Sequence record: PZ386967.1
Direction: 5' to 3' (one strand)
Source: a phage
Length of the DNA stretch: 64,000 nt
Every line of letters begins with the position of its first letter. Within the stretch, counting starts at the first letter, position 1. A program made the position numbers and the translations under genes. The notes below the pieces were generated by a model that did not search any database, was not told the DNA's origin, and worked only from the letters and a program-made list of their open reading frames with translations. Positions 6,067 through 55,145 of this stretch are shown here, piece after piece.

Positions 6067-6695
6067 CCCACAACCTCCAGACCCATCAGATCTTCCATGG
6101 TCTTCTGAATACGCAGCCAGTCAAGCGCAGCGTCATAACGAGGGTCATGATAGACCATACCTTCCAGTTCCCACGCCTTGATACCAGCATACCGATCCTG
6201 CTGTCCAACACCCTTCAGCCAACTCACGATGTCGAAGGTGTGGTGGTAGTCCCAAGGCTCGTTGGAGTCCTGCTTACATGTCACCTCAATGATGTGCTGA
6301 GCCTTGCGCAGATCAAACAGGTTGCGATCACACCAGTCGACCGAGCGCGGGTCTACCCCAAGACGATGACAACCCTTGCGGATTTCATCGGCCAATTGGA
6401 AGATAGAGATGTCATCTTCCTTGGGGTACAGACTGACTGCGCGAGCCGCATCACACGGGTTACGTTTACCCGCCCCCAACCACCATTCTACCGTCCCAGC
6501 GTCCTTCACGCGACCAAGTTCGAGCTGCTCTTTGACATTCAGCTTAATGAACGTCGTGCGCTCCTCAACCAGCTGCTGAAGAGTATAACGCTTGGTCAGG
6601 TCGGCGATGGTGTGCGCCCAAGACAGCATGACTGCATCATCCCAGCGCCCCAAGGTTTCACTGTCGGCCACAGCCAAAAAATTTGATTTATACAT
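6063..6695 (-). CDS. dexA: DnaQ-like 3'-5' exonuclease (DexA-like)
   Basis: N-terminal FLAVADSETLG (DxE exonuclease motif I); TVEWW and other segments resemble recalled T4 DexA. Confidence 0.6.
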   Translation of the reverse strand: MYKSNFLAVADSETLGRWDDAVMLSWAHTIADLTKRYTLQQLVEERTTFIKLNVKEQLELGRVKDAGTVEWWLGAGKRNPCDAARAVSLYPKEDDISIFQLADEIRKGCHRLGVDPRSVDWCDRNLFDLRKAQHIIEVTCKQDSNEPWDYHHTFDIVSWLKGVGQQDRYAGIKAWELEGMVYHDPRYDAALDWLRIQKTMEDLMGLEVVG

Positions 6696-6939
6696 GTTTA
6701 TTCTCCCAACACTTTATTTTGGCTTTTACTGTATAATAATTTTCATCAATGAACTTTTTGTTGACGCGCTTAATTTCTATCTCTGGGCAAAGTAACCCTA
6801 TAGTTTCCCTCAAAATCTGGCTCACCCTGGCCTGTGAAATACAATAAATTTCTGATACTTCTTTCGAACTAGTTCCAGACATGACAAGTTTTAGAATATT
6901 GACCTTTTTATAAAATTCTTGATCAAACGCACATATCAT
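6688..6939 (-). CDS. small HTH protein (sigma-70 region-4-like)
   Basis: 83 aa; SSKEVSEIYCISQARVSQILRETIGLL resembles sigma region 4 / LuxR HTH; sits in a strongly AT-rich stretch. Confidence 0.45.
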   Translation of the reverse strand: MICAFDQEFYKKVNILKLVMSGTSSKEVSEIYCISQARVSQILRETIGLLCPEIEIKRVNKKFIDENYYTVKAKIKCWENKHV

Positions 6940-6942
6940 TAT

Positions 6943-8888: not shown

Positions 8889-10229
8889 TTATAGGCCAAG
8901 AGCCTTTTCAAGGTCATCAAGGTCTTCAGTGTAAAGATCGATGTCCTCTTTCTTACTTAATTCCTTGTGCTGTGCTTCAAGGTTCTCAATCTGCTTGAGT
9001 AGGCGCTCACGGGCATCCAGAGTAATAGACGACAGAGGCATCTTGAACAACTCGTCAAGATCACCACCAAAGTCCGGGTAGTCCTGCATGAACAGAGACT
9101 TCAGCACGTCAATCTTTTGGCGGAGATCAACACGCGTCGCCCATTCAATGAACACCGCCCGGTCACCCAGCTTGCGGATCCTGTCTGCCATGTCCTTCAA
9201 CAGATACTGGCGACGGTCTTCATACCGTGACAGGCGATAATTGAAGAACGGCAGCAACATGTCCCGCCAACCAGAATAACGATGAATGACCCCGTCTTCA
9301 TCCCAGGCCGTCCAAACAGGCTTGTTGGCTGAATACAACTTGAACATCTGCTCAACCTGATTATCATCCAGCTTGGACAGTTCGCCGCGCTTAAACACAA
9401 CCGTGATATCCCAGCCATCTTCCGTCGTGTCGTTGGCGTACTCGGTGAGGATACCTGCCTTGTACAGAGGCAGCAACACCTTGGTCTCATAGGTCTTGGC
9501 AAACCAACCCACTGGGACTTCGGTGATATGCAGGGTCGTGGCATTGACGCGACGGAAGATGCCGCGACTGTATGCTCTTCCTTCCTCAGTATAGCCTGTC
9601 TCTCCTTTGAAGCCGTTCCAGTACGGTTTTAAGTCTTTCGGGTCTTCGCCACGGAGAAGCGCTCTCAGGGCATTCAGCACGGACTTAACGCAATGACACG
9701 GGGTGTCGGTGGAATATCCGGTGCCGATACCATTGATCCCATTCACCAGGAACATGGGTAGGATGGGCAGAAAGAACTTCGGCTCCAGTCTTTCTTCACC
9801 AAGGTAGTTGTATTCCAAAATACCCTCATCCTCCTTGCGGAAGATCTTGCGGATAACGTCAGATACAGCGACGGATATGTATCGGGCAGATGAAGCATCA
9901 CGCCCCATGATAGAACCAAACTGGCCATCGCGGTCAAAGTACGGGATGTTGTTCGTGCCTGGGAACCCCTGAGCCATGTTCACGATAGTGCCGCTCATGT
10001 TCTCACCACCAGACTTGTAGTTGGTGCGAGCGGCGGCGAACATACCAAGGCGGTCAACAATCTCCTCCTTGTTGTACTCAAGAGCAGCGAAAAGGATCTT
10101 GCGCTGGCTTGGCTTGAGGCTGTCGATCAGCTGAGGGATTTGACGGATGCTGTTGACCACAGAAAACTGCTTATGGTCAGTGTTGACAAAGTCCGTTACA
10201 GTAATGCTCTTAGCAACCATCTTATTCAT
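8889..10229 (-). CDS. 52: DNA topoisomerase II medium subunit (GyrA-like, gp52-like)
   Basis: DSLKPSQRKILFAA matches the GyrA/ParC DNA-gate region; start moved to ATG 10229, overlapping the stop of the large-subunit gene. Confidence 0.8.
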   Translation of the reverse strand: MNKMVAKSITVTDFVNTDHKQFSVVNSIRQIPQLIDSLKPSQRKILFAALEYNKEEIVDRLGMFAAARTNYKSGGENMSGTIVNMAQGFPGTNNIPYFDRDGQFGSIMGRDASSARYISVAVSDVIRKIFRKEDEGILEYNYLGEERLEPKFFLPILPMFLVNGINGIGTGYSTDTPCHCVKSVLNALRALLRGEDPKDLKPYWNGFKGETGYTEEGRAYSRGIFRRVNATTLHITEVPVGWFAKTYETKVLLPLYKAGILTEYANDTTEDGWDITVVFKRGELSKLDDNQVEQMFKLYSANKPVWTAWDEDGVIHRYSGWRDMLLPFFNYRLSRYEDRRQYLLKDMADRIRKLGDRAVFIEWATRVDLRQKIDVLKSLFMQDYPDFGGDLDELFKMPLSSITLDARERLLKQIENLEAQHKELSKKEDIDLYTEDLDDLEKALGL

Positions 10230-12131
10230 CCTCAGTTTCAAACAGGCAAACATCGCTAAACCAGGTTTTACGGTAATCGGCAGCCTCATCACCGAAGCCA
10301 TTCTTCAGTGACTGTTGGTAGCCATCGTCCAGCGTGACCGTCGTAGTATACGCATCTAGGTTGTTTAGAATACGTTTGAAGTCTTCAGTGCTGTTACCAC
10401 CAAGACCTTTCAGATATTTCTTCTTCGTGATCTTCTTGGCATCAGGCGTCTTCAGGAACTCCTCATACTCGGCGTTGTTCATGAACTCATGCATCACCTT
10501 ACCACACCACACACGCATGTAAGGGGTGCGCAGGAGCTTCAGCCTGCCCTGACGGACATACTCCGGCCAGTAGGTGCAATACAGGGTGATCAACAACCCA
10601 CGGATGTGGATGCCGTCATCGTCCGCATCGGTAGCCACAACAGTCTGTGGGTAACGGGTGATATCAAGGGGCTGGCCTGGCACTGCGCCGCCATGGATCG
10701 TACACAGGTTCTTGAACTCTTCATTGTTCATCACCTTTGAGCGCGGGGCGTTCAGGCAGTTGATGAACTTACCACGAAGCGGGAACAACCCGATCTTCTT
10801 GGTGTCGCGGGCGTTCAGGATAGGATTGGAGGCACTATCACCCTCTGTCAGCAACAGGGAGCATCCGCTGCGGTCACCACGGGCGGTCGCCGGGTAATAC
10901 TTCTCAATCTCACGATAATCCCGCTTGCTGATGTCCTTCTTGGCCTTTTCAAACTCAGCATCATCCTGCTCATTGCGCAGGGAAGCCAGTTCTTTGCTCA
11001 GACCAGCTGTAACGAACTCAAGCGCCTTGCGGATCAGTTTATCACTGGGCTTGTACGACGTACCGAACTGGCTGACAGGAGTGGTCATGCGCTCCTTGGT
11101 CTGGCTGTCAAAGCGCGGGTTGTTGATGTCGGCAGCGATGAACAAGGACATGTGGTTCTTGATCATTGCTGGCTTCAGTTCGGTCTTGAACTTCTTCACC
11201 AGCTGGGGACGAATCGCTGCCACGATCTGGTCAGCAACATAATCAACGTGAGGACCACCGATGTGGGTGGCAATAGAGTTCACGTATGATGCGTGCATGA
11301 ACGTACCGGATGAAGGGGCTACAGCAACAGACCAATCCCCGGTTTCGTCAACAGCCGAACCAGCATGGAAGTAATCAACGAAGTGGCCAAAGCGGTCAAT
11401 CCGGATTTGCTTCCCGTTGAGAACAATCTTCAGGCGCGGGTTACACGCAGCCACTTCAAACGCGCGGCGATAGATCATCAGCAGGTTGTTCTGGTCAAGT
11501 CCTTTGACGCCCAGACGAGCATAGTCAGGGATCCAGGCGATGGATGTGCCAGGACTGTTCACGTTGCTGATGACTGGGTTAGATTTCTTGCTCATGTTGT
11601 CTTCAAACGTCTGAGTATAAGACTTCTTGCCGTCATTAGTCGTGACGCGGAACCATTTGGAGAACACGTTGACGAGGGACGCCCCTTCGCCATTCTGACC
11701 ACCGGACTTCTGGTTGTTGTACTCTTCGTCTTCGTCGTTGAAGTTCGATCCCGCATATAGAGAGCCGAACAACATTTCAGGAAGCCACTCGTTGGTGACG
11801 CCATGCTTGACCACAGGGATACCCCCGTTGTCAGCAACGATGATTTGACCGTTCATCGGGGAAACTGTGACGGTGATTTCCGTCAGGGATTTGCCCTCAG
11901 GGGTCTTGCTGTGTCAACACAGTTGGTGATGATTTCATCAAACTGTTTGATCAGCGCGGGGGAGTACTCAAAGTTGTCACGGAAGATGACTTTGTCCTTA
12001 GTTGGGTCATACACCCACACCGTCCCCACAGACGAACGAATACTGCCCAGATGACGCTCTGGGCGGAGTAGGATATGCTCAACGTGAGTGAGCTTCTTGT
12101 ACTTGCGTTCAATATCAATTTTGTTGGACAT
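10222..12131 (-). CDS. 39: DNA topoisomerase II large subunit (GyrB-like, gp39/gp60-like), interrupted by a frame change near 11886-11913
   Basis: N-terminal ORF 11883..12131 (EHILLRPERHLGS, DEIITNCVDTA = GHKL N-box) and ORF 10222..11856 (ADNGGIP, GEGASLVNVFS, LLTEGDSA Toprim) lie in different frames; the conserved strand KSLTEITVTVSP is readable only in the downstream frame upstream of its first Met. Confidence 0.8.
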
Positions 12132-15602: not shown

Positions 15603-16028
15603 TTATTTAATCTGCAATTTTTCGATCAGCTTCGCAATCAGCTGAATGCGATCTTCTTCTGTGATACCCAGCGGCGCAGCCAACAACTTGAGATCATCTT
15701 CACCCAGCAGGTTCAGAGTCTCGACTGTGATGTTGGTTTCAATCACAGCCCCGGTTTCAAACGGCTTGCCGAACTTGTCGCGACCATAACGCTTGAGGGT
15801 CGCAGCCAGCCCTGGAAGCTCCTGGAGGAGTTCCTTCGTGCCGTCTTGGTATTCGCACACCCAACCGTACCCGCCAGCGTAGACGACGCCTCCGTCTCCC
15901 CCTGGAGGGATGTTATCGATGGCGCGTTGTAGGTAGGTAGGCAACACACCTTCCTCCTTCGCCTGGATGTCATCGACTGGGGCTTCAGTTTTAATTTCAA
16001 CTTTCTTGACTTCAGGTTTCTTCGCCAT
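15603..16028 (-). CDS. hypothetical protein
   Basis: 141-aa ORF, ATG start; lysine-rich N-terminus, Gly-rich core. Confidence 0.45.
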   Translation of the reverse strand: MAKKPEVKKVEIKTEAPVDDIQAKEEGVLPTYLQRAIDNIPPGGDGGVVYAGGYGWVCEYQDGTKELLQELPGLAATLKRYGRDKFGKPFETGAVIETNITVETLNLLGEDDLKLLAAPLGITEEDRIQLIAKLIEKLQIK

Positions 16029-16214
16029 GTTTGGTTCTCCTATAGACTGTTACGTATTTACCACAGCAATTGCAGCAGTATACGTGCATCGCGTATCCTT
16101 CGTCTGTGAAGTCGCAACCACCACAGCGACAGAACAATTTCACGAACTGTTGGTCATGAACTTCACGGGGAGGGAATTGTTTGTGGGAGTATTCCCTGGT
16201 CTCGCCTTCGAACT

Positions 16215-26404: not shown

Positions 26405-26604
26405 TTTGGTTCCTTGAATATTTTATAGCCAGCAGCGCCGATAGCCATAATCGCGCCGATACAATACAACATGGTCAGGTTCATCTTCTCTGAGGTTGTT
26501 AAGTCCAGAGGGGTGAAATGATAGGCTAGGGCAGTACACATTGAAACGGCTGCCATAACCAGACCAATGAACAACAGATAATTAGACAACCGTTTCATGA
26601 TCAC
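26401..26604 (-). CDS. small membrane protein
   Basis: 67-aa ORF with two hydrophobic helices; ATGA coupling. Confidence 0.4.
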   Translation of the reverse strand: MIMKRLSNYLLFIGLVMAAVSMCTALAYHFTPLDLTTSEKMNLTMLYCIGAIMAIGAAGYKIFKEPK

Positions 26605-27518
26605 CCCTTCTTCATCAGGTCAAGGAGAGAGCGCGACGCTGCCTTCGTTGCTTCTGGCTGGGCGCTCGCCTTGGTTTTAGTTTTGGATGCCTTCTGCGGC
26701 TTCTCAGGGACTCTGTGCGCCAAAGGATCCTGGCCGCCGATTTCACGAGTCATCGGATTGGTTTCACAGTAGGCGTAGAAGTCTTTGGTGTCCATGTTAA
26801 CTTCACGCAGTTCGGACCGTATCTGATGACAAATCGCATTACCCACAACCCACAGCGGGGCGTCGTATGGGAGCACCGCCAACTCGGACTGCTGTTTGGT
26901 CGTGAACTCCTGGGTGTTGGTCTCTGGCGCTTTATACAGGATATCCTGTCCGCTGTAATCATCAACAGCCACAGTGAAGCCCAGCGCCAGCATTTCGGCC
27001 TTCGACTTCTCAAACTCCTTGGAGTAAGATTCGTTGCGTGACCAGCCGGAGTTCCCTGCTTCTTTACCAGATCGACCACGGATACGAGCATCGTACTGAT
27101 AGCGGTCGGGGTACGCAAAGTACAGCAGCGCCAATGATTCAATCGGATAGTTCTTGAACATCCATTCAGGACGCCATTTGTCCGACAGCATGAGGGGTTC
27201 ACCCTCACACACCAGAGTGTATCCCTGAACCAACCAGCACTTGATTAGATCACGAGCAATATCGCCTGAGCCTGTAGCAGCATGGATTGCATCCATTGAA
27301 GTCCAGGAAGCCAGGCCGGATTTGTTAGACACGGTGTACTGTCCAACGAAGATTAACTTCAGCTCTCCGAACTTCAGGCCAAACGGGCGAGTCTTGTCAC
27401 CAACGGTGTAGGTCAGTTCGGTAGGCTCCAGCTTCGTACGGAGCCATTCGATGAACTGGACCACTCTCGTACCCTTGCCCGTGGCCGAGGTGCCTTTCAC
27501 TACGATAATTTTTGCCAT
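26601..27518 (-). CDS. P-loop kinase (polynucleotide kinase-like; candidate DNA or nucleotide kinase)
   Basis: N-terminal Walker A KIIVVKGTSATGKGT, similar in layout to T4 Pnk N-terminus (KIILTIGCPGSGKST); 305 aa. Confidence 0.55.
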   Translation of the reverse strand: MAKIIVVKGTSATGKGTRVVQFIEWLRTKLEPTELTYTVGDKTRPFGLKFGELKLIFVGQYTVSNKSGLASWTSMDAIHAATGSGDIARDLIKCWLVQGYTLVCEGEPLMLSDKWRPEWMFKNYPIESLALLYFAYPDRYQYDARIRGRSGKEAGNSGWSRNESYSKEFEKSKAEMLALGFTVAVDDYSGQDILYKAPETNTQEFTTKQQSELAVLPYDAPLWVVGNAICHQIRSELREVNMDTKDFYAYCETNPMTREIGGQDPLAHRVPEKPQKASKTKTKASAQPEATKAASRSLLDLMKKG

Positions 27519-36492: not shown

Positions 36493-36581
36493 TGGCGGAA
36501 GGTGAAGGATTCGAACCTTCGGGGGCTAAAAGCCCCACTCGATTAGCAGTCGAGTCCCTTAAACCTCTCGGGCAACCTTCC
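36493..36581 (-). tRNA. tRNA-Ser (anticodon GCU)
   Basis: Hand-folded cloverleaf: acceptor GGAAGGT/ACCTTCC, anticodon loop CTGCTAA, long variable arm, T-loop GGTTCGAATCC, encoded CCA. Confidence 0.8.
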
Positions 36582-36801
36582 AATTTGGACGGGCTTCACA
36601 CCCGATTGAGCATTTGATCTGCTGTAGCCCAACTCCCCGCGCTTCTCAGCGCCGATTGGTTAACTGGCGACCAGTGCCTTCTGGTTCGATCTCCTGGAAC
36701 TTTACAGGCTTTGCGCCCGACCATTTCTGGAAGTTGGGGCATCGTTTCCGATGTGGAGTCACCCCATTTTATACACAGCTGGCTGCAACGCTTACTGTGT
36801 T

Positions 36802-36886
36802 TGGTGTGAGTGGATGGATTCGAACCACCGCGCTGTTACGGGGAGATTTACAGTCTCCTGCATTCGACCGCTCTGCCACACTCACA
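36802..36886 (-). tRNA. tRNA-Tyr (anticodon GUA)
   Basis: Acceptor GTGAGTG/CACTCAC, anticodon stem GGAGA/TCTCC with loop CTGTAAA, long variable arm, T-loop TTCGAAT, encoded CCA. Confidence 0.75.
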
Positions 36887-37142
36887 TTTGGTCTGCCGCT
36901 GCGTGCTGGGCCACGCTCGAGGACATCGGCCATCCTTCCTCAGCTAATCCACGCAGCGGTAGATTTGTATCAGAGTGTCCGGTGTAGCAACCCGTGAGGT
37001 GCGCACTACTGTAGCCTCTACACTCTGAATTTGGTGGGCGTTACTATCGTCGTCTTCGGATTCCGTTCGGCTATTGGACAGAGGCTTGGAGCTTGTCGGT
37101 CGCGTACTTTATGCCTATTCACTTTCGTTCACACCCATTGTC

Positions 37143-37218
37143 TGGCGACGATGGCAGGACTTGAACCTGCGACATACGGTTTAACAGACCGCCGTTCTAC
37201 CGACTGAACTACATCGTC
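37143..37218 (-). tRNA. tRNA-Asn (anticodon GUU)
   Basis: Acceptor GACGATG/CATCGTC, anticodon loop CTGTTAA, T-arm CAGG-TTCAAGT-CCTG, encoded CCA. Confidence 0.8.
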
Positions 37219-37389
37219 TTGCAAATCACTATACCATATAAAGTTTATTGAACAAACATTTATTTTACAACAAACTGTATTGGCGGGGTCTGAGGCTTTT
37301 CACCTCACCTGCTGGGTTTGGCCGCCCAGCCGTTCTCTATGAGGATTCACTGTCCGGACAGCTATCCATTAAACTATCGCCCCTCAATA

Positions 37390-37466
37390 TGGTGATCCTG
37401 ATTGGGTTTGAACCAATGACCAATGAATTATGAGTTCACTGCTCTAACCGACTGAGCTACAGGACC
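37390..37466 (-). tRNA. tRNA-Met (anticodon CAU; initiator, elongator or Ile2 not resolved)
   Basis: Acceptor GGTCCTG/CAGGATC, D-arm TAGCTCAGTCGGTTAGAGCA, anticodon loop CTCATAA, T-loop GGTTCAAACCC, encoded CCA. Confidence 0.8.
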
Positions 37467-44243: not shown

Positions 44244-44283
44244 ACTAAATACCCCTAGATGAAACGAACACATTTAGGGGTAT
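44244..44283 (+). promoter_or_regulatory. late-promoter-like motif ACTAAATAC plus 5' leader hairpin
   Basis: CTAAATA core, then inverted repeat ATACCCCTA / TAGGGGTAT whose 3' arm holds the only G-rich SD-like sequence before ATG 44289. Confidence 0.45.
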
Positions 44284-44288
44284 TTGAA

Positions 44289-47200
44289 ATGGCTAATAAA
44301 CCAACACAGCCTGTTTTCCCTCTCGGTCTGGTGGCTGAAGAGCAGTCTACTTTGGCTGGTGTCGTCAACACGGGTACGATTGAGCATGGACCAGATGCTG
44401 TCCTGACTTTACCCGAGGGTAATGCCAGCGCAGGACTCCCGTCTTCCGTTCGCTACAATGCCGACTCCGACGAATTTGAGGGCTTCTATGAAAATGGTGG
44501 ATGGTTGCCGCTGGGTGGCGGTGGTATCCGCTGGGAAGTCCTTCCGCATGCCTCTACGGTAATGCTCACTGAAGGGCGAGGCTATCTCATTAATAATACC
44601 ACAGGGGCATCTACAGTGGTTCTCCCTTCCCCTACGCGTATTGGGGATTCCGTTACTATTTGTGATGCTTATGGGAAATTTGCCACTTACCCATTGACCG
44701 TGTCTCCTTCTGGAAATAATTTGTATGGCTCCACTGAAGACATGGCTATAACAACTGATAACGTATCAGCAACGTTCACTTGGTCTGGACCTGAACAAGG
44801 TTGGATTATTACATCCGGCGTCGGTCTTGGCCAAGGCCGTGTCTACAGTCGTGAAATCTTTACAAAAATTTTGGCGTCTGAAACAAGTACTGTCACTCTC
44901 AATACTCCACCAACAATCGTGGACGTGTATGCTGACGGAAAACGCCTTGCGGAATCCAAATATTCACTAGATGGGAATGTAATCACTTTCAGTCCTTCTT
45001 TGCCAGCCAGCACAGAACTTCAGGTGATTGAATATACTCCTATTCAATTGGGTAATGGCGGTGGTTCTAGTTCTTCTACGATTACTTGGGTCTATAATGG
45101 GGGTTCAGCGATTGGCGGTGAAACCGAAATCACGTTGGACGTCGTTGTTGATGATGTTCCGGCCATTGATATAAACGGAAGTCGTCAGTATAAAAATCTG
45201 GGATTCACATTCGATCCATTAACCAGTAAAATCACTCTGGCGCAAGAACTGGAACCAGAAGATGAAGTTGTTGTAATCATCAATGGAACACCAAACATCT
45301 ATAATCAAATTGATCATACTTTGCGGGAAGTGGCTCGTGTAACCAATGTTAAAGATACAGAGGTCGTTTATTTTAGTGTTGGTGCTGTGCTAAGCGGGTA
45401 TAAAGTTATCTATGATAAAGTAACACAGAGATCATATTTTATTCCAGAGCTACCGACTGGAACCACGGCAGTCAGCCTTAGTTCTTCGGCTGTACTTGTG
45501 CATTCTGCTGGTAGTGTTGATCTGGGCGCATTAGCCGTATCTCGTGAGGAGTATGTGACCTTACCTGGTTCATTCGATACAGGTGTAACTGTTAATACCA
45601 AGAATGAGTTGGTTGTGAGTAACGATATTAAATATCGTTGGGATGGTTCTGTACCCAAAGTAGTCCCTCCAGAATCTACCCCATTGGGTACAGGAGGTGT
45701 TGGTCCAGGGGCATGGCTTGTAGTTGGTGTTGTTGGATTAGAGCAACGTTTAGCCTCCTGGAAAGGTTCTTCTCTTATTGATTCCGGTAGTCTGTCTCTT
45801 TACAAAAAGAGCGGTGTATTCGGTGATGGTGGGAATGTATCCGATAAATATCAGGTTGTTCTACATTCAGATGGGTTCTGGTACAAGTACAATGGGACAC
45901 TACCTGTTAGTTATGGTGCTGCCCCAGACTCTTCTTGGACTAACGTTGGTAAGCTAACAGGGTTTAATGAACACTCACCTGAGAATTTTGGTGCAATCCC
46001 CAATGACCCTAGTTTTGACTGTTTACCTGCTATAAAACTAGCTATAGCCACAGGTACATTAAATCTGAATGGGAATTCTACCTACCACGTAACGGATGAG
46101 GTTGTTATACCTTCTTACTTACGTGGGAATCTAAACGGGGCAACAATTAAAGCAATTGGCTCCGTATGGCCTACGTTAAAAGCTGTTGTACGCGTTAGTA
46201 AATTTCCTGTCGGTACAGCAACAGTGGATGTGGCTAATACAGAGAATCAAGTGCGAGGATTACGCTTAATCGGTAGCTTAAACGTAGACTGTGCAGATAT
46301 TGCATCATATGGTTTTTATGCACGTCTTCTGTGTGCAGAATCTGAGATGGGTAGCATCTATGCATATAATGCTAATAGATATGGCATTGTAATGTTTGCT
46401 TGCTGGTATTTTCAAATGGGCACTCTCCATGCAAACAACTGTGCAAGGGGTATGGCATTAGGTTATTCAACAGAAGGTGAGCAAGGGGATACCTATGTGA
46501 ATGCTACACACTTCCCTCACATTAGTGCATGGGGTACTGATAAGTCTACGGGACTAGGTTATGACCCAATCACGGATGATGCGAGTAAATATACAATAGG
46601 TGCTGGTATTATCTTAGGTCGTGGTTTGTCTACCAGTGTTGGTGTGATTTGCTCTGAGAATACGGCAGGTGCTGGGGTAGTAACAATGGACCCTGCTGCG
46701 TGGGACATTGGGGTCATGTACTGTGAGGGTAATAGTAAAGACTTTACTCAAGAGGGTGAACCCAAGGTGTCATTGCTGTCATCCAAGGCCAACAGTGAAA
46801 GTCATACGCTTACCATCTCCACACTCCACCTTTCCGCAGGTTGTGGCATTTTAACCAGAAGCAATCAAGAGCGTGTGCTAATCAGAAGTCTATATCGCTT
46901 TGATAACGCAAAAACCTTCCACTCTTACTGCACAGCAGACACAGTAGAGGTTGGTAGCAGCAACTACTATGTACTTAACGGGCATAATTACAATGCACCT
47001 GCTGCACTTATTAAGGAACCGCTCAATGTAGACTTTGTGCGTTCAGGGTTGACTTTAAGTGAGTGGACATCTACAGTTATCGGTCATTTTGCTGGTAGTA
47101 CAGCAGAACAACAGCTTTATGTTAAGCTCCCAGCAAGTCCCAGCGGCCTAGATTTACAGATAGATAGTGAGGATGGGACGGAATATATCACTGTAACTGG

Positions 47201-47342
47201 TACAGATTTTAAAGTCTCTCTAACTAAGAAAAGATTGCCTAGTAAACTGTATGAGATAAGGATTGGTGGGGTGTCTACAGTAGCTGTTACCGATTGTTCT
47301 ATTCTAGTCAGAAGTAAAAAAGGTGATTGGTATTACTGGTAG
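44289..47342 (+). CDS. tailspike protein with N-terminal adaptor region and internal conserved anchor module (TSP4-like)
   Basis: 1017 aa from ATG 44289; internal about 150-aa module (VVYFSVGAVLSGYKVIYDK...HSAGSVDLGALAVSREEYVTLPGSFDTGVTVNTKNELVV...) shared with three downstream genes; Asn/Gly-rich C-terminal half consistent with a beta-helix. Confidence 0.65.
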   Translation: MANKPTQPVFPLGLVAEEQSTLAGVVNTGTIEHGPDAVLTLPEGNASAGLPSSVRYNADSDEFEGFYENGGWLPLGGGGIRWEVLPHASTVMLTEGRGYLINNTTGASTVVLPSPTRIGDSVTICDAYGKFATYPLTVSPSGNNLYGSTEDMAITTDNVSATFTWSGPEQGWIITSGVGLGQGRVYSREIFTKILASETSTVTLNTPPTIVDVYADGKRLAESKYSLDGNVITFSPSLPASTELQVIEYTPIQLGNGGGSSSSTITWVYNGGSAIGGETEITLDVVVDDVPAIDINGSRQYKNLGFTFDPLTSKITLAQELEPEDEVVVIINGTPNIYNQIDHTLREVARVTNVKDTEVVYFSVGAVLSGYKVIYDKVTQRSYFIPELPTGTTAVSLSSSAVLVHSAGSVDLGALAVSREEYVTLPGSFDTGVTVNTKNELVVSNDIKYRWDGSVPKVVPPESTPLGTGGVGPGAWLVVGVVGLEQRLASWKGSSLIDSGSLSLYKKSGVFGDGGNVSDKYQVVLHSDGFWYKYNGTLPVSYGAAPDSSWTNVGKLTGFNEHSPENFGAIPNDPSFDCLPAIKLAIATGTLNLNGNSTYHVTDEVVIPSYLRGNLNGATIKAIGSVWPTLKAVVRVSKFPVGTATVDVANTENQVRGLRLIGSLNVDCADIASYGFYARLLCAESEMGSIYAYNANRYGIVMFACWYFQMGTLHANNCARGMALGYSTEGEQGDTYVNATHFPHISAWGTDKSTGLGYDPITDDASKYTIGAGIILGRGLSTSVGVICSENTAGAGVVTMDPAAWDIGVMYCEGNSKDFTQEGEPKVSLLSSKANSESHTLTISTLHLSAGCGILTRSNQERVLIRSLYRFDNAKTFHSYCTADTVEVGSSNYYVLNGHNYNAPAALIKEPLNVDFVRSGLTLSEWTSTVIGHFAGSTAEQQLYVKLPASPSGLDLQIDSEDGTEYITVTGTDFKVSLTKKRLPSKLYEIRIGGVSTVAVTDCSILVRSKKGDWYYW

Positions 47343-47350
47343 TATAATAA

Positions 47351-47380
47351 AAAGCCCCCAATTTTGGGGGCTTTTATTAT
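47351..47380 (+). terminator. rho-independent terminator
   Basis: Hairpin AAAGCCCCC-AATTTT-GGGGGCTTT followed by a T-run. Confidence 0.6.
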
Positions 47381-47414
47381 ATAGAGTTTACTGTTTTCAT
47401 TACCCTGATTGATA
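47374..47414 (+). repeat. about 40-nt intergenic repeat, copy 1
   Basis: TATATAGAGTTTACTGTTTTCATTACCCTGATTGATA; near-identical copy at 55206..55246. Confidence 0.6.
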
Positions 47415-47597
47415 ATGCTGTTGGCTCTCTCGGGTTGTCATCAAACGGGTATAAGAACTTTATAGGTGATATCAATGATGGGTCAGCGTATTTTTATTTC
47501 ACCAACATAGATGGATCAAGAATATCGGGGTCGTCTGTTTATGATGGGTGGGGTGATGTTGGTATACATTTTGAAATGTGTCTGGAATAGGAGTGTC

Positions 47598-47696
47598 AAA
47601 CCCCGCTTTGGCGGGGTTCTTATTATACCTTTGTTCATAAATTTGATTAGTTCAGACTAAATACTCCATATTGGTCATCCTTTATGGGGTATTATC
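47598..47696 (+). repeat. duplicated tailspike upstream cassette, copy 1 (hairpin, late-promoter-like motif, leader hairpin)
   Basis: About 85% identical by eye to 50575..50675; includes GACTAAATAC at 47655-47664 and leader hairpin ATACTCCATA / TATGGGGTAT at 47661-47692. Confidence 0.6.
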
Positions 47697-50126
47697 ATGA
47701 TTTCTCAATTCAATCAACCACGCGGCTCCACTTCCATAGAAGTTAACAAACAATCTATCGCTCGAAATTTCGGTGTCAAAGAAGACGAAGTCGTTTATTT
47801 CACTGCTGGTATTGATCTCAGTGGATTTAAAGTAATTTATAATGAGTCTACCCAACGGGCTTATTCTCTTCCTTCAGGTATTGTTTCAGGAACGACTGCG
47901 ATAAGTCTGGATAAAAGAGCTATCCTCACTCATTCAGCGGGTTCTGTTGATCTTGGGGAATTAGCAGTAAGCCGCGAAGAATACGTAACCTTACCTGGTT
48001 CATTTGATACTGGTGTAACTGTTAATACTAAGAATGAATTAGTTGTCTTTACCGATGGTAAGTATCGCTGGGATGGGGCACTGCCTAAAGAAGTGCCTGC
48101 TGGTTCAACCCCTACATCAACCGGTGGTGTTGGAACAGGTGCATGGGTTAGTGTTGGTGATGCGAGTTTGAGGTCAATAGCTCAATACAGAGCCAATACC
48201 ATTGAAGATTTAAAATCATTGCCATTTGCGGTTGGAGATATTGTTAATGTCGCTGGGTATTATGATGTTTTTGATGGGGCACAGCATTACCGAGTGATTA
48301 GTGGTACAGATGATGGAACAGGGGTTCAGCTCAATAATGGTTTGTGGGCAAATATTATCATTAATGGCGATGCTTGTGTAGATTGGTTTGGCGCTAAAGG
48401 TGATGGTGTTGCAGATGACTGGTGGGCAATCAATAAAGCTATTAACGCCTCGCTCTCTACCGATTATCAGGGTGGTTGGTGGGAGACGTCAAGTAGAAAC
48501 CCTAAATTTAAAGTTAGACTTAGTAGACGCTCTTACAGAATCACTAAACAGATTTTACTACCCCCTTACATAGAGTTTTATGGTATGGGTTCGCGCTGGT
48601 ATTTTTCGGGTGATAATAATTCTCGCTTAATCCCTGATTTTGATAATCCGTTGCAATTCGCTGTGAAATCTGCTAGCTATATTGTTGAAACCGGTGAACT
48701 AGCACCTGAGGGGTGGTATTCTGGGGTGGTTTGGGTTGACCCAAAAAAACTAACGACTTGTCATGGTATTAAAACTTATGGATATAGCATCGAACCAACA
48801 AAACAAATTTTAGGCGGTATAAGACTGATAGCGAGTCCAATTTCTCATGTATACGATATATTCATAACAAATGTTGATTTTGGAGTTTTACTGAATTGTT
48901 CATGGGTGAGTAAGGTTGACGTTAAAACTCATCATAATAAATGCGGGGTTATGTCTAGTCATGATGGTAATAACACTCACGTGGATGGTTATTTTACAGG
49001 GACAGAAATCAAACCGCTTGATGGTAATCCTTACCTCAACCCAATAGAGTCTTTAGACTCTACAACAGGGCTCCAAGACCAATCTATATCTGACCCAGAC
49101 AGTAAAATAGGTGTGATTTTTTATTGGTCACAGGGGTCAACAAGTACGAATATGACGTGTGAGGGTAACACTATTTCGTTGGCTGTGGCTAAGGGTGGTG
49201 CTGATGTAAGGTGTTTATACTCAGAACGTAATTCAGATTGTACATTTACTGGGTACAGTTCACTAGTTACAATTGGTGAAATAACTGGCATTGGTGACGG
49301 TGGAACTTTTGAGCTTGGTGTAAATAATACTATTTCGTTAGACAAAGACACTCAGTATGGTGTCGCTAAACGATTTAAGTACGTGAGCGAGTGGGGTAAT
49401 AAGCTGTTTATGCCCTCTAGCTGGAAAGAATACACCAAAGGTTGTTTAGTTGAAGGGTTTGATTATAGCGAAATTTTTGTAGATGCGATAAATGGAGATG
49501 ACACCAATGTTGGCTCCAGTCTTCACCCTGTGAAAACTTTGGAGAGAGCTCTAACGCTTGTGAATTCAGTGTATACTACATCTGACTTGCTAAGCTCAGT
49601 GCCGAGGGATAGAGTAATAAAGTTAGTAGGCTCAGCAACATACTACCCAGACGGACAGCATAGGTTCGTGGGCGGCTCGTTAAAAATTACAAAAGCTGAT
49701 AACTCACGACCGACTGTTAATTTATCAAAACCAATCCGATTTAACGACACATCCCTAGTATTTGAGGAAGTAAATTTAGTGCGACCAACAGATGACCACG
49801 GGAATAATGAGAATGGCGCAATTTTCCTTGAGGATGGGTGTAATGAAGTCAGATTGAAAAACTGCGATCTAAGTCTACAAAAATTCAGCTTCTTATATCC
49901 TACTTGGGGCTTTGCTGGAATATGTACCTTGGTGTTAAACGGGGTTAGTGTTACTGGTGATTCAACAACAAGAATGATACAAACAGCTGATGGATATCAT
50001 GATTTGCACTTGTTTAATGTAATTAGCTACGAGACAACTTACACTGGAGGAATAGAGTCAAGACCAGATAAAGGCTATGATATACCAGCAGATAGACGTG
50101 GTCATATATTGGGTGTATCAATATAA
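47697..50126 (+). CDS. tailspike protein with N-terminal anchor module (TSP1-like)
   Basis: 809 aa; the conserved module sits at the N-terminus; a 50-nt stretch (48114-48163) is identical to 51597-51646; Asn/Gly-rich C-terminal region. Confidence 0.65.
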   Translation: MISQFNQPRGSTSIEVNKQSIARNFGVKEDEVVYFTAGIDLSGFKVIYNESTQRAYSLPSGIVSGTTAISLDKRAILTHSAGSVDLGELAVSREEYVTLPGSFDTGVTVNTKNELVVFTDGKYRWDGALPKEVPAGSTPTSTGGVGTGAWVSVGDASLRSIAQYRANTIEDLKSLPFAVGDIVNVAGYYDVFDGAQHYRVISGTDDGTGVQLNNGLWANIIINGDACVDWFGAKGDGVADDWWAINKAINASLSTDYQGGWWETSSRNPKFKVRLSRRSYRITKQILLPPYIEFYGMGSRWYFSGDNNSRLIPDFDNPLQFAVKSASYIVETGELAPEGWYSGVVWVDPKKLTTCHGIKTYGYSIEPTKQILGGIRLIASPISHVYDIFITNVDFGVLLNCSWVSKVDVKTHHNKCGVMSSHDGNNTHVDGYFTGTEIKPLDGNPYLNPIESLDSTTGLQDQSISDPDSKIGVIFYWSQGSTSTNMTCEGNTISLAVAKGGADVRCLYSERNSDCTFTGYSSLVTIGEITGIGDGGTFELGVNNTISLDKDTQYGVAKRFKYVSEWGNKLFMPSSWKEYTKGCLVEGFDYSEIFVDAINGDDTNVGSSLHPVKTLERALTLVNSVYTTSDLLSSVPRDRVIKLVGSATYYPDGQHRFVGGSLKITKADNSRPTVNLSKPIRFNDTSLVFEEVNLVRPTDDHGNNENGAIFLEDGCNEVRLKNCDLSLQKFSFLYPTWGFAGICTLVLNGVSVTGDSTTRMIQTADGYHDLHLFNVISYETTYTGGIESRPDKGYDIPADRRGHILGVSI

Positions 50127-50574
50127 ATAATTGATATTATGCTTCATGGTGATTGTGGGTGATTCACCCACGATTACTTTTAGGTACTACAGTTGATAAT
50201 TCAGATTGATACATTGGATTGGCAGGTGCGTGTAATACTGCACTTGAATTTTGATACATAAATCCGGCACCCTCCCTCACCCTCAACGCGCCCAATTGCC
50301 CCCATAGGAGGCTCATTACCTCCTTGTGGGCTTTGTTGTTTTTGTGGCTGCTGTTGCTGACTACATTCTATGTATGGATGTATCTCATCATACTAAGCAT
50401 TATCTAAGAGCCATCCTATGATACGACCCCATTGGGATTCCTAACTTCACAACTACGGTAATATTATGAATTAATCAGGTGAACTGCTCCTAGTCAGACT
50501 GGAGGAACGATTGAAGACTCTGTTTGATAATCAGGCAAGGGATAGATAGGATCGTGGTTTTGGAGAGTAAAATC

Positions 50575-50675
50575 AAAACCCCTCTTCGGCGGGTTCTTGT
50601 TATACCTTTGTTCATAAATTTATTAGTTCAGACTAAATACCCCATATTGGCAAATCCTCTATGGGGTATCTTCAA
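50575..50675 (+). repeat. duplicated tailspike upstream cassette, copy 2
   Basis: Contains GACTAAATAC at 50631-50640 and perfect 10-bp leader hairpin ATACCCCATA / TATGGGGTAT at 50637-50669; the ORF-track ATG at 50661 lies inside the hairpin arm. Confidence 0.6.
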
Positions 50676-53180
50676 ATGACCAGAAACGTCGAGAGCATCT
50701 TTGGAGCGGTCGTAACAGCTCCGCACCAGATTCCATACACTTACACAGCAACGGGTGGAGAGAAGTTTATCTCCCTCCCTTTCTACCCTGTCACTGGTAT
50801 AGTCACAATCAACGGTGGCATGCAAGTTCCGTTAGACAACTTTGAAATCGATGGAAATACGTTGAATCTCGGACGCGCATTATCCAAAGGTGACGTTGTG
50901 TTCTGTCTGTTTGATAAGATTCTGTCTCCAGAAGATTATAAAACCGGGGTTCGAATCTATAAGTTTCAGGCTATAGGAGGTGAAACCGAGTTCACTCCTG
51001 ATTACACATATTATGGAGTCCAATCTCTTTATATCGGTGGTGAGTACAAAACACCCGAAATTGAATATTCCTATGACAGCACGACAGGGAAAGTGTCTTT
51101 ACAAACTGCGCTGACTGCAGGCGTTTGGGTAGTCGCTGAAATGTCTGTTAAACAACCGAATATCAGTCCGTTGTTTGACCGAAGTATTCAAGAAATCGCT
51201 CGTGCAACTAACGTTAAGGACAGTGAAGTAATTCTTAGCACTGACACTACGCAATTATTGAATGGTAAAAAGATTGTCTACTCTGTTAGTGAGCAGAAGT
51301 CATATGGGTTACCTTCATTACCCTCTAACATATACATCTCATCCGTTAGTAATGGGCAGTTAACGTACAATCCAGGTAATATTACTGTTACTTTGTTACC
51401 TACTCATCAAGAGTCGAATACCAGAGAATTGTGGAGACGTTTACTTGCAGAAGCAGGTTTATCTCTCGTTGCTGGTAGCTTTGAAGAAGGTGCAACAGTT
51501 AATAGTGAAACGGATGCTGTTTGGCACATCGCTGGTGGTCAGTGCTATACGTGGGAGGGTGCACTACCTAAAGTTGTCCCCGCTGACTCAACCACTACAT
51601 CAACCGGTGGTGTTGGAACAGGTGCATGGGTTAGTGTTGGTGATGCTTCATTGAAGTCAGAATTGGCTAAACCTACAGGAGCAGGTTTTTCAGGTTTTGA
51701 TAAGTCAATTGATTACGAAACTGGTACTGTTGGCAATGCGCTTAAGAAAATTATAAATGTCAACCCGGATATGTATCCATCATTACAGGATGCGATTGAT
51801 GCTGCGGCAGCTTTAACAGGTTTAGAACATGCACCAAGTAGTGCTGCTAACCATCCTGACTGGCTACAACCTAACACTGTAAGCAAAGTTATCAGGCTGA
51901 ATGGGAAGAAATATCCTATCAGTACGACACTACACATTCACGGAGATGTTAGCATTGATGCTGGTTTCGGTGGGGTATACCTGACAGATGACTTCATAGC
52001 AGACTCATCTGGTTATGCTGTAAAGTGTGATAAAGGTACAGGTAATCAATACGCTGGGCACATTAGCAATCTTTTAATTGATGCCCGTGCAAAAACTGTT
52101 AATGGATTTAAAATATCTGATGGTTATGCCAACAAGTTAGATGGCATTTACGTAGCCAATATTGATGGTCATGGCATCCATATTGCTGGCGGTATGGGTG
52201 TGCACCTATTGAAGTTTTATGCTGTTGGTGTATTAAAACCAACTAATCCACTCAGCACAGCCCACATTGTTGAAGGTAGCGATCATCAGGTTAGTATGGG
52301 TGAAGGTCGTTATTTCCGATTTGGTACCTGGGTTCGTGGTGGTGGCAATAACAGAATTAGTAAGGTGCACAACTGGGGCATGTATGACGATACAGTCACT
52401 GACCAGAACTCAAGGATGAAATGCTGCTTTGTTGTACAGAACTCAATAAACAATTCCTTCAATCAATGTTTTGCAGATTCTCCATCAAAATGGGACTACG
52501 CGAAAGCTAATTTAGATCCTGTAGATGGTTATATTAACGGCGGGATTGGCTTTTTTATTGATGGTGGAGCCACCGGTAATACGTTCTCTCAATGCCAGAC
52601 GTTTGTGAATATGAATGCGTTTAATGACGCAGGGCTATCTTCATATACGGCATCACTAATGCCATTCGCCGTTGGTAGTATCAACTGTTCATTCATTGAG
52701 TGTGAAAACTCAAACTCACCAGCATGGGTGGCAAGGCTGATAACTCATATTTACTCTGCGGACCAGACATTTACTAACATACTTGCAGCTAAGAATTTTG
52801 TTGGTATAGAGTATGATATGGTTTGCAATAGTACAATTTTCAGGAAAAATGTTGGAGTTCCTGTATTGGTAAGAAATCCAAAGTTCGAGACGCCAACAGC
52901 AAGTTATGCGCCTGACTTTTCAGACGCATCTTACATCGCAGCTACAGTTACAGGAGATGTAACAATAACTCCAGCAGTATTAACAAATACACTAATTGGT
53001 TATGTTGAGGTTCTTTTGGCTGTCTATTCAACAACATCTAAAACAATAACATTTGGTGCAAATGTTAAATTAGCAAGCAATACCCCATCTTTGACAGCAG
53101 CTGGAACACAAGTTTTTAGGTTGTCAACAACTGATGAAGGAGCAACCTGGTTTTGTAAGTTCGAGAGTGCTTACTCGTAA
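50676..53180 (+). CDS. tailspike protein with N-terminal adaptor region and internal anchor module (TSP2-like)
   Basis: Start moved to ATG 50676; conserved module at about residues 170-330, including TSTGGVGTGAWVSVGDASL identical to the 47697 gene. Confidence 0.6.
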   Translation: MTRNVESIFGAVVTAPHQIPYTYTATGGEKFISLPFYPVTGIVTINGGMQVPLDNFEIDGNTLNLGRALSKGDVVFCLFDKILSPEDYKTGVRIYKFQAIGGETEFTPDYTYYGVQSLYIGGEYKTPEIEYSYDSTTGKVSLQTALTAGVWVVAEMSVKQPNISPLFDRSIQEIARATNVKDSEVILSTDTTQLLNGKKIVYSVSEQKSYGLPSLPSNIYISSVSNGQLTYNPGNITVTLLPTHQESNTRELWRRLLAEAGLSLVAGSFEEGATVNSETDAVWHIAGGQCYTWEGALPKVVPADSTTTSTGGVGTGAWVSVGDASLKSELAKPTGAGFSGFDKSIDYETGTVGNALKKIINVNPDMYPSLQDAIDAAAALTGLEHAPSSAANHPDWLQPNTVSKVIRLNGKKYPISTTLHIHGDVSIDAGFGGVYLTDDFIADSSGYAVKCDKGTGNQYAGHISNLLIDARAKTVNGFKISDGYANKLDGIYVANIDGHGIHIAGGMGVHLLKFYAVGVLKPTNPLSTAHIVEGSDHQVSMGEGRYFRFGTWVRGGGNNRISKVHNWGMYDDTVTDQNSRMKCCFVVQNSINNSFNQCFADSPSKWDYAKANLDPVDGYINGGIGFFIDGGATGNTFSQCQTFVNMNAFNDAGLSSYTASLMPFAVGSINCSFIECENSNSPAWVARLITHIYSADQTFTNILAAKNFVGIEYDMVCNSTIFRKNVGVPVLVRNPKFETPTASYAPDFSDASYIAATVTGDVTITPAVLTNTLIGYVEVLLAVYSTTSKTITFGANVKLASNTPSLTAAGTQVFRLSTTDEGATWFCKFESAYS

Positions 53181-53184
53181 AACT

Positions 53185-53210
53185 AACCCCGCTTCGGCGG
53201 GGTTTCTTAG
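53185..53210 (+). terminator. terminator-like hairpin
   Basis: Hairpin AACCCCGC-TTCG-GCGGGGTT followed by TTCTTAG. Confidence 0.45.
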
Positions 53211-53228
53211 AAAAACAAAGAGGTCGTT

Positions 53229-55145
53229 ATGAACGAAATGTTCTCACAAGGTGGTAAAGGCTCTACTGGTATTCTTACCAATAAGCAAGCCATTGCCCGT
53301 AAGTTTGGTGTTAAACAGAATGAGGTAGTCTACTTTGCTGTAGGTGTAGACTTAGGTGGTTACAAAGTAATTTATGATAAGGCTACTCAGCGTGCCTATT
53401 CCTTGCCTGCTGACATTGGTTCAGGGGTGACTGCTGTAAGTCTTGGTACTAATGCCGTACTTGTACATTCAGCTGGTTCCGTAGATCTTGGGGAATTAGC
53501 CGTATCTCGTGAAGAATACGTTACATTGTCTGGGTCGTTTGACAATGGTGCTACACTTAATGTTAAAAATGAATTGCTTACCCATACAACAGGTAAGTAT
53601 CGCTGGGATGGTGAGTTACCTAAAACCGTTTCTTCTGGCTCAACTCCTGAAAGTGCTGGAGGTACTGGGTTAGACAAGTGGGTTAGTGTTGGTGATGCAG
53701 CCTTGAGAATCAATCTTGCATCTGATGATGGCGCTGGTCTGGTCGGATTTAAGTCACCTCTGGCCAACTCCATTAAGCGAACACTACATGATAAAAATAA
53801 AGACCTGGTGTCAGTCAAGGACTTCGGGGCTGTTGGCGACGGTGTGACCGATGATACCGCCGCGTTTCAGGCAGCAATAGATTCGAAAAAGAGTTTATAC
53901 ATACCGGATGGTATTTATCTTATAAGCTCTACTTTAATCATAACTGCCACTGATAGTCTATGTATTGTTGGTAATAGTTTTGGACATGTTAATGACCAAA
54001 CAACAGGTTCAGTAATTAAGTTTACCGGGTTAGCGTCACCCGCCATTCGGGTTCAAGGTGGTGCGATAGGAGCTAAGATTTCTGGACTTTTCTTGGATAT
54101 TCAGGACTCATCGTCTGATGGTTTTGATTTCGGAGGGGCTTGGTACCTAAAACTTCAAGATTGCGTTGTCAGAAACGCCCGGTACGGTGTTTATTTACAT
54201 TACGACGCCCCAGACTATTTTTCCGGGGTGGCTGAGCTAACTTCATGCTATTTCGCTAAATGTGCAAATGGTGTAAAAACGTCAAAAGTAGATATCAACG
54301 TAGTTAAAGTTGATAATTGTACTTTCTTTGATGGTGTTAACGGTGTTCTTATCGGAGACTCAGGTACTGCAAGTAGTGTACGAAATTTCATAGTCAGAGA
54401 CTCTCTATTTGAAGCAAACACGGGCTATGACGTAGGTGTTGTCGCCGGGGGTGCACAGCAGTTACTGGTAGATGGTAACTACTTTGAAGAGAATACTGCT
54501 TCTTCTTTAGCCAGGGTATATGTTGCAGATGATAGTCACTCACCGCGTTCTTCTTCTGTTTCAATAACCAACAACACGTTTAGCAAAGATACGACAGGCG
54601 ATCTTATTTTCCTGTCCGGTATTTCCGGTGTTCTTGTTAAACAAAACTGGTCAGCATTTGGGGGTATAGGTTTTGTAAGGGCTATTAATATCGACAATTA
54701 TGAGATAGATAGATGCTCTACCGTATCTGGAGCAACAGCCTGTAATGTTGTTATAGATAACGTCTTACAAGTACCTGACACTTCTGTTAATAAGATTTAT
54801 ATTAACAAGGCCCAAGAATACGCATTTATTGGGTCTACCGTCGCAAAAAGGTCGAGTGCATGTACACGGGCAATGATCAATTTTAATGGAATTTCGGGGT
54901 CGTCAGTGTATGCGGATGGAGCAACTGTAACTAAAACCGGGACCGGTAAATATACCGTCAACCTATCTAATACTATGCCCTCCTCTGCTTATGCTGTTTT
55001 ATGCAGTGTTGGCAATACCACTAGCGGAGGGAAATTAGTAATTAATGTCGTAAGTACATCCCCTGACTCTTTTAACTTAGAAGTTTTTGACCTTTCTGGA
55101 TCGTATCAAGATTCAGGATACATATCTGCCGCAGTTGTTATGTAA
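53229..55145 (+). CDS. tailspike protein with N-terminal anchor module and beta-helix-like C-terminus (TSP3-like)
   Basis: 638 aa; N-terminal module about 65% identical to that of the 47697 gene; C-terminal repeats typical of right-handed beta-helix (pectate-lyase-like) folds. Confidence 0.65.
   Translation: MNEMFSQGGKGSTGILTNKQAIARKFGVKQNEVVYFAVGVDLGGYKVIYDKATQRAYSLPADIGSGVTAVSLGTNAVLVHSAGSVDLGELAVSREEYVTLSGSFDNGATLNVKNELLTHTTGKYRWDGELPKTVSSGSTPESAGGTGLDKWVSVGDAALRINLASDDGAGLVGFKSPLANSIKRTLHDKNKDLVSVKDFGAVGDGVTDDTAAFQAAIDSKKSLYIPDGIYLISSTLIITATDSLCIVGNSFGHVNDQTTGSVIKFTGLASPAIRVQGGAIGAKISGLFLDIQDSSSDGFDFGGAWYLKLQDCVVRNARYGVYLHYDAPDYFSGVAELTSCYFAKCANGVKTSKVDINVVKVDNCTFFDGVNGVLIGDSGTASSVRNFIVRDSLFEANTGYDVGVVAGGAQQLLVDGNYFEENTASSLARVYVADDSHSPRSSSVSITNNTFSKDTTGDLIFLSGISGVLVKQNWSAFGGIGFVRAINIDNYEIDRCSTVSGATACNVVIDNVLQVPDTSVNKIYINKAQEYAFIGSTVAKRSSACTRAMINFNGISGSSVYADGATVTKTGTGKYTVNLSNTMPSSAYAVLCSVGNTTSGGKLVINVVSTSPDSFNLEVFDLSGSYQDSGYISAAVVM

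Follow-up and report, generated by a model that had tools for sequence, protein, structure and literature searches.

A single-base frame break in the topoisomerase II large-subunit gene of an Ackermannviridae phage sequence

Gene 60 of bacteriophage T4 undergoes translational bypass. The topoisomerase of this phage has a three-subunit layout, in which the split falls in the TOPRIM domain and is accompanied by an insertion including a putative homing endonuclease, mobA (PMC11461880). When the T4 topoisomerase is mutated, DNA replication is lowered or delayed but not abolished (PMC3016281), and T4 is also able to use host topoisomerases (PMC4396842). The large subunit of T-even phages is represented by the PDB chain 8ylu_C (611 aa, "DNA topoisomerase (ATP-hydrolyzing)"), and a fusion of T4 gp39 and gp60 by 8yo3.

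The window, i.e., the whole stretch of 64,000 nt analyzed here (record PZ386967.1), comes from a phage of the family Ackermannviridae, with Escherichia phage YX22 as the best record. Its topoisomerase II large subunit belongs to the same enzyme class as that of the T-even phages and shares with the latter the domain order (GHKL ATPase, transducer and TOPRIM) as well as a separate gp52-like subunit; the orthologue in phage AG3 is annotated as similar to "gp39plus60". In contrast to the T4 gene, split in the TOPRIM domain, the gene in the window is interrupted within its ATPase domain, where a base is lacking and no DNA has been inserted. The same gene is found in phages fGh-Ecl02 (USL85960.1), LHE287 (XAN60175.1) and YX22 (WPH64598.1; 636 aa) with a DNA identity of 98.8-99.5% and with the same neighbors, namely a MazG-like gene upstream and the gene of the gp52-like medium subunit 1 nt downstream. 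The window differs from these orthologues in that one C is missing at position 11913, which splits the ORF into 82 and 544 codons. Canonical -1 frameshifting, as in dnaX and the phage tail chaperone genes G/GT, resembles the locus only in geometry, in that two frames overlap and the second is shifted by -1; a slippery heptamer is absent from the window, no downstream structure stands out, and the arrangement is not conserved in any relative examined.

The large-subunit gene as written

The features of the locus, in the coordinates of the window, are as follows.

10222..12131, minus strand: whole gene of the topoisomerase II large subunit (gp39+gp60-like, GyrB-like); 1910 nt as given, 1911 nt (636 aa) with one C restored
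11883..12131, minus strand: ORF1, 82 codons and TGA; ends ...DEIITNCVDTARPLRANP and then TGA
11913..11913, minus strand: site of the lesion, after codon 73 (Asp) and before codon 74 (His) of the intact gene, placed by alignment and gap lists
10222..11913, minus strand: rest of the large-subunit gene in the -1 frame, codons 74-636; G1 box, remaining ATPase domain, transducer, TOPRIM and TOPRIM_C
10222..11856, minus strand: ORF2, 544 aa, called mechanically from an internal ATG at 11856; begins MNGQIIVADNGGIP
8889..10220, minus strand: intact gene of the medium subunit (gp52-like, GyrA-like), 443 aa; codon differences with four relatives, PF00521 on the orthologue of Logan contig L009

The frame break in the large-subunit gene follows deterministically from the sequence, without any statistical element, and was confirmed. 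When the two ORFs (11883..12131 and 10222..11856) were re-derived, the coordinates and translations that the initial annotation had given around the break proved correct. The genuine N-terminus accounts for residues 1-73 of ORF1 and contains the GHKL N-box FDEIITNCVD, and residues 74-82 (TARPLRANP) constitute an out-of-frame tail; the C-terminal end reads ...FDEIITNCVDTARPLRANP, followed by TGA. The -1 frame is shut by the TGA at 11916..11914 and open from 11913, where its translation is HSKTPEGKSLTEITVTVSPMNGQIIVADNGGIP. A full-length large subunit requires a -1 shift or one added base somewhere in 11913..11886, and the claim of the initial annotation that a -1 shift is needed between 11886 and 11913 is borne out by the length from the ATG at 12131 to the stop codon at 10222 (1910 nt, or 3n+2) and by the -1 frame being open from 11913. 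As written, the gene is not a single uninterrupted frame with a complete ATPase domain, and the frame becomes complete only with the C restored. No purine-rich ribosome-binding motif was found in the sequence upstream of the internal ATG at 11856 (GTCACAGTTTCCCCGATG).

The addition of one C yields an ORF of 636 aa with a single, terminal stop codon. In the protein translated from it (henceforth the repaired protein), PF00204 DNA_gyraseB (63.8 bits), PF01751 Toprim (24.7 bits) and PF16898 TOPRIM_C (46.1 bits) were detected above their cutoffs in the order of transducer, TOPRIM and TOPRIM_C that characterizes a type IIA large subunit, while HATPase_c matched the repaired protein alone and at 23.3 bits, below the cutoff of 26.4. 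The repaired protein could be aligned over its full length with human TOP2A (E 5.9e-97) and, over residues 9-626, with the phage topoisomerase II chain 8ylu_C (E 2.7e-75). Among the GHKL motifs, the N-box FDEIITNCVD is present in ORF1 and the G1 box ADNGGIP in the -1 frame, and the two align with FDEILVNAADN...NGKGIP of human TOP2A. The break is situated within the GHKL ATP-binding fold, just past the N-box (FDEIITNCVD) and ahead of the G1 box (DNGGIP). Both the assignment of the gene to the topoisomerase II large subunit and the placement of the break in the ATPase domain between the N-box and the G1 box, made from the letters of the window at the outset, are thus upheld, the former by the Pfam matches and the TOP2A and 8ylu_C alignments and the latter by the motif positions.

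The start codon of the medium subunit lies 1 nt past the stop codon of the large subunit, so that the two genes are 1 nt apart in the window (10218..10224). Between the medium subunit of the window and those of four relatives, 21-31 synonymous and 2-4 non-synonymous codon differences were counted. A tight cluster of substitutions was observed at codons 285-287 (window 9360..9369, minus strand), where the window has Asp285 and Asn287 and the four relatives have Ser and Glu; these two are the sole window-unique residues in the gp52-like subunit. The cluster looks like a small patch of recombination. In AV101 and AG3, an extra ORF of 447 nt bearing no Pfam match is found between the large- and medium-subunit genes (L004 2480-2926 and L005 2480-2926), and in several other relatives, GIY-YIG or HNH homing endonucleases are annotated adjoining the topoisomerase gene. 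The junction of the two genes looks like a hotspot for mobile insertions.

The missing base in comparison with related phages

A megablast search with the 2-kb region retrieved 243 phage records, mostly of Salmonella, Escherichia, Dickeya and Shigella phages, and the closest matches were YX22 (99.5%), LHE287 (98.9%) and fGh-Ecl02 (98.8%), each of which spans 2002 nt in the record against 2001 nt in the query. The relatives are annotated in this region with one CDS of 1911-1914 nt, "DNA topoisomerase II large subunit", directly followed by the medium (gp52-like) subunit.

The lesion is a single C at window position 11913 (G on the plus strand), where CC was found in every relative aligned: the relatives read GTT GAC CAC AGC, while the window reads GTT GAC ACA GC. 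When the neighborhood of 170 nt was aligned with five relatives, this was the sole gap, the relatives bearing GTTGACCACAGC (Val-Asp-His-Ser) and the window bearing GTTGACACAGC. The flanking sequence is otherwise identical to those of YX22, LHE287 and fGh-Ecl02, and the one-base gap recurred at 11913 in the whole-region alignments with these three phages and with Logan contig L009. By alignment with the relatives, the lesion occupies the extreme upstream edge of the interval 11913..11886. The initial annotation had reasoned that the gene is one nucleotide short of an intact ORF and had suggested aligning the topoisomerase genes of related phages; the alignment displays the missing base directly and locates the one-base gap at 11913.

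The deleted version appears to be confined to the window among the data searched. A blastn search with 60 nt across the site against 50,697 phage records gave no gap-free match among the 220 records matched and none at 100% identity, and all of the matches listed (30 of the 220) span 61 nt in the record. Exact-pattern scans of IMG/VR and GTDB genomes for the deleted version gave zero matches, and the sole match in a scan of JGI metagenomes (L008) was rejected as a chance 22-mer inside an unrelated ORF. Logan contig L009 encodes an identical MazG-like neighbor, but it is of a different phage (98.5% identity) and has an intact gene of 636 aa carrying the extra C. The contig thus counts as a further intact relative. 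No exact product of ORF1, ORF2 or the medium-subunit gene was on record when the three were looked up, and no second, independent assembly of this isolate turned up in the collections. In tblastn with the repaired protein, a single match spanning 80% or more of its length was obtained for 306 of 308 records, and the protein was read in one piece in all of the 60 records sampled.

Selection on the repaired gene and indels across the window

The repaired protein matches the LHE287 and fGh-Ecl02 proteins at every residue (100% identity), and the codons that differ from the two genes are all synonymous (18/18 and 23/23, respectively). Against YX22, 9 of the 10 differing codons are synonymous and one residue differs; against AV101, 64 of 72 are synonymous, stop codon included. 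These codon differences indicate that full purifying selection has kept the protein intact until practically the present, and the lesion is therefore either extremely recent or not real. A long-standing pseudogene was ruled out, as the lesion is single, no non-synonymous difference was found among the 18 and 23 codons, and the partner gene is intact.

Of the indels relative to YX22 over all 64 kb, that at 11913 is the only frame-breaking one in a CDS annotated in YX22; the remaining indels in CDSs sum to multiples of three and the others are intergenic. With the indels polarized by LHE287 and fGh-Ecl02, 15 were found to be unique to the window and, besides that at 11913, these are intergenic or form in-frame or compensating groups. 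All of the isolated window-unique indels of 1 nt other than that at 11913 are intergenic. The lesion occurs in a run of two bases, and nearby runs of five bases in the same gene (CCCCC and GGGGG) are correct.

Several other differences between the window and its relatives were observed. At approximately 4301 (minus strand), the orthologue of the YX22 CDS at 15872-16210, a hypothetical protein, bears a window-unique in-frame deletion of 9 nt (aligned as 4 + 5 nt). At 6695..6941, the window has approximately 245 nt extra where YX22 is contiguous (13664/13665, the junction of two CDSs), so that, compared with YX22, the segment has been either inserted or replaced. The ORF of 305 aa at 26604..27518 (minus strand) encodes a full-length 5-hmdU DNA kinase 2 (Pfam HMUD2, E 3e-158) of the thymidine-hypermodification pathway. 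Its orthologue in YX22 and fGh-Ecl02 is 532 aa long with an N-terminal extension of 235 aa, and that of fGh-Ecl02 is annotated as a putative homing endonuclease; the short form is shared by the window and LHE287, and the adjoining stretch of approximately 790 nt does not align with YX22 at the megablast level. Four tRNA genes, for Ser(GCT), Tyr(GTA), Asn(GTT) and a CAT anticodon (Met by ARAGORN), are located at 36493..37466 (minus strand), and at the position equivalent to the last of them tRNA-Met is annotated in YX22 and tRNA-Ile in fGh-Ecl02. The tail-spike region at 44259..55145 (plus strand) comprises four large tandem ORFs (1027, 809, 839 and 638 aa) and is strongly mosaic: in 44.5-54 kb, the best single relative covers only 33%, and segments match Salmonella, Escherichia and Klebsiella phages.

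Origin and meaning of the frame break

The split could be a working arrangement of the gene, either because a full-length product is restored by recoding or because the two pieces function separately; we regard the two taken together as very unlikely. Recoding would involve a -1 frameshift within 11913..11886, transcriptional slippage or a bypass like that of T4 gene 60. The two frames overlap by 28 nt, and a shift by -1 within this overlap would yield the full-length protein with at most eight loop residues changed. ORF1 terminates in CCC TGA, and a proline codon in the P site followed by a stop codon is a shift-prone context. The classic bypass of T4 gene 60 sits in the same enzyme family. 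Against these points, a scan of the whole of ORF1 found no X XXY YYZ heptamer in frame 0, in agreement with the early observation that no classical slippery heptamer is visible; the interval 11886..11913 contains no long A/T homopolymer and no run longer than CCCC, which does not suffice for transcriptional slippage; and a +1 slip at CCC TGA, as read from the sequence, would enter the wrong frame and meet a stop codon within a few codons. The predicted fold of 131 nt around and downstream of the site has a minimum free energy of -43.2 kcal/mol (z = -1.54), and 16 of 200 shuffled sequences fold as well. Relatives with identical flanking nucleotides are in frame, which argues that no evolved or conserved recoding signal is present, and a bypass of the gene-60 type is excluded, since the window has no inserted segment and is 1 nt shorter, not longer, than the intact genes. 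A programmed -1 frameshift was rejected, as neither a slippery heptamer nor a two-frame arrangement in the relatives was found (0/220 gap-free, 60/60 in one piece). Altogether, programmed or leaky recoding is highly improbable. We give a barely appreciable chance to the combination of a real deletion and some full-length topoisomerase made through an inefficient, non-canonical -1 frameshift within the 28-nt overlap, with A AAT CCC TGA as one candidate site; this leaky frameshift would suppress a fresh mutation. In a weaker variant, an Ackermannviridae phage may be viable as a natural topoisomerase II null. No more credible than the leaky event is a gene naturally split into pieces of 82 and 544 aa that are translated separately and co-assemble like gp39/gp60 of T4. 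Both pieces are open, the second starts with ATG, and the type IIA large subunit of T4 works when split (PMC11461880), but the cut in the window would separate the N-box from the G1 box and interrupt the Bergerat ATP-binding fold, 18 conserved residues (HSKTPEGKSLTEITVTVSP) would be lost and nine out-of-frame ones gained, the ATG at 11856 is not preceded by a ribosome-binding motif, the arrangement is absent from all relatives examined, and neither product is on record.

The initial annotation had offered three origins for the break, namely an error, a real inactivating mutation and a programmed -1 frameshift. The last of these falls, as no slippery site was found, the split is not conserved and the relatives are in frame, while both the error and the mutation remain. 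A genuine and very recent inactivating frameshift in the sequenced stock, fixed for instance by a bottleneck at plaque purification, is quite possible, though we hold it to be somewhat short of probable. The phage would then produce an N-terminal fragment of 82 aa and no functional large subunit, and may replicate in a handicapped manner via the gyrase or topoisomerase IV of the host; the phenotype to be expected would be of the kind known from the "DNA-delay" mutants of T4 (genes 39, 52 and 60). The T4 topoisomerase mutants and the use of host topoisomerases by T4 provide a precedent, and the lack of secondary decay fits a mutation a few generations old. The rest of the sequence is of high quality with no other broken CDS and the lesion is outside a long homopolymer, and the clean assembly and the position of the lesion keep a genuine mutation plausible. 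On the other hand, all relatives examined have the gene in a single frame, implying strong selection against its loss, the allele is unique to the window, and consensus errors are a priori more frequent than nulls that persist through isolation and amplification. A literature search on frameshifts in the topoisomerase of Ackermannviridae gave nothing relevant.

The position, nature and uniqueness of the lesion and the perfect conservation of the repaired protein were directly observed, and from these we infer that the missing C is probably, albeit with considerable doubt, an isolated error of base calling, consensus or assembly in the deposited sequence. Deposited phage genomes contain erroneous single-base indels more often than they carry fixed null mutations in replication genes that are conserved universally. 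The artefact is favored because the deletion is unique, the relatives all carry CC, the repaired protein is conserved, the gene is in one frame in the relatives, and the partner is intact. Two observations count against an artefact: no sign of an error-prone assembly was visible across the 64 kb, and a site in a two-base run is not typical of platform errors of the homopolymer type. If the base was lost only in the written sequence, the real phage would encode an intact protein of 636 aa, which would form an ordinary type IIA topoisomerase, dependent on ATP, with the adjacent gp52-like subunit, and the site at 11913 would have no special role.

Thus, we regard the frame break as most likely a commonplace defect in the sequence of a familiar and conserved gene. 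Its main value lies in quality control, as annotating the frameshift keeps two spurious proteins (82 and 544 aa) out of the databases. A real deletion would imply that topoisomerase II, otherwise conserved universally in Ackermannviridae, is dispensable under laboratory propagation, as in T4; this would be a modest and unsurprising result with no bearing on the biology of recoding.
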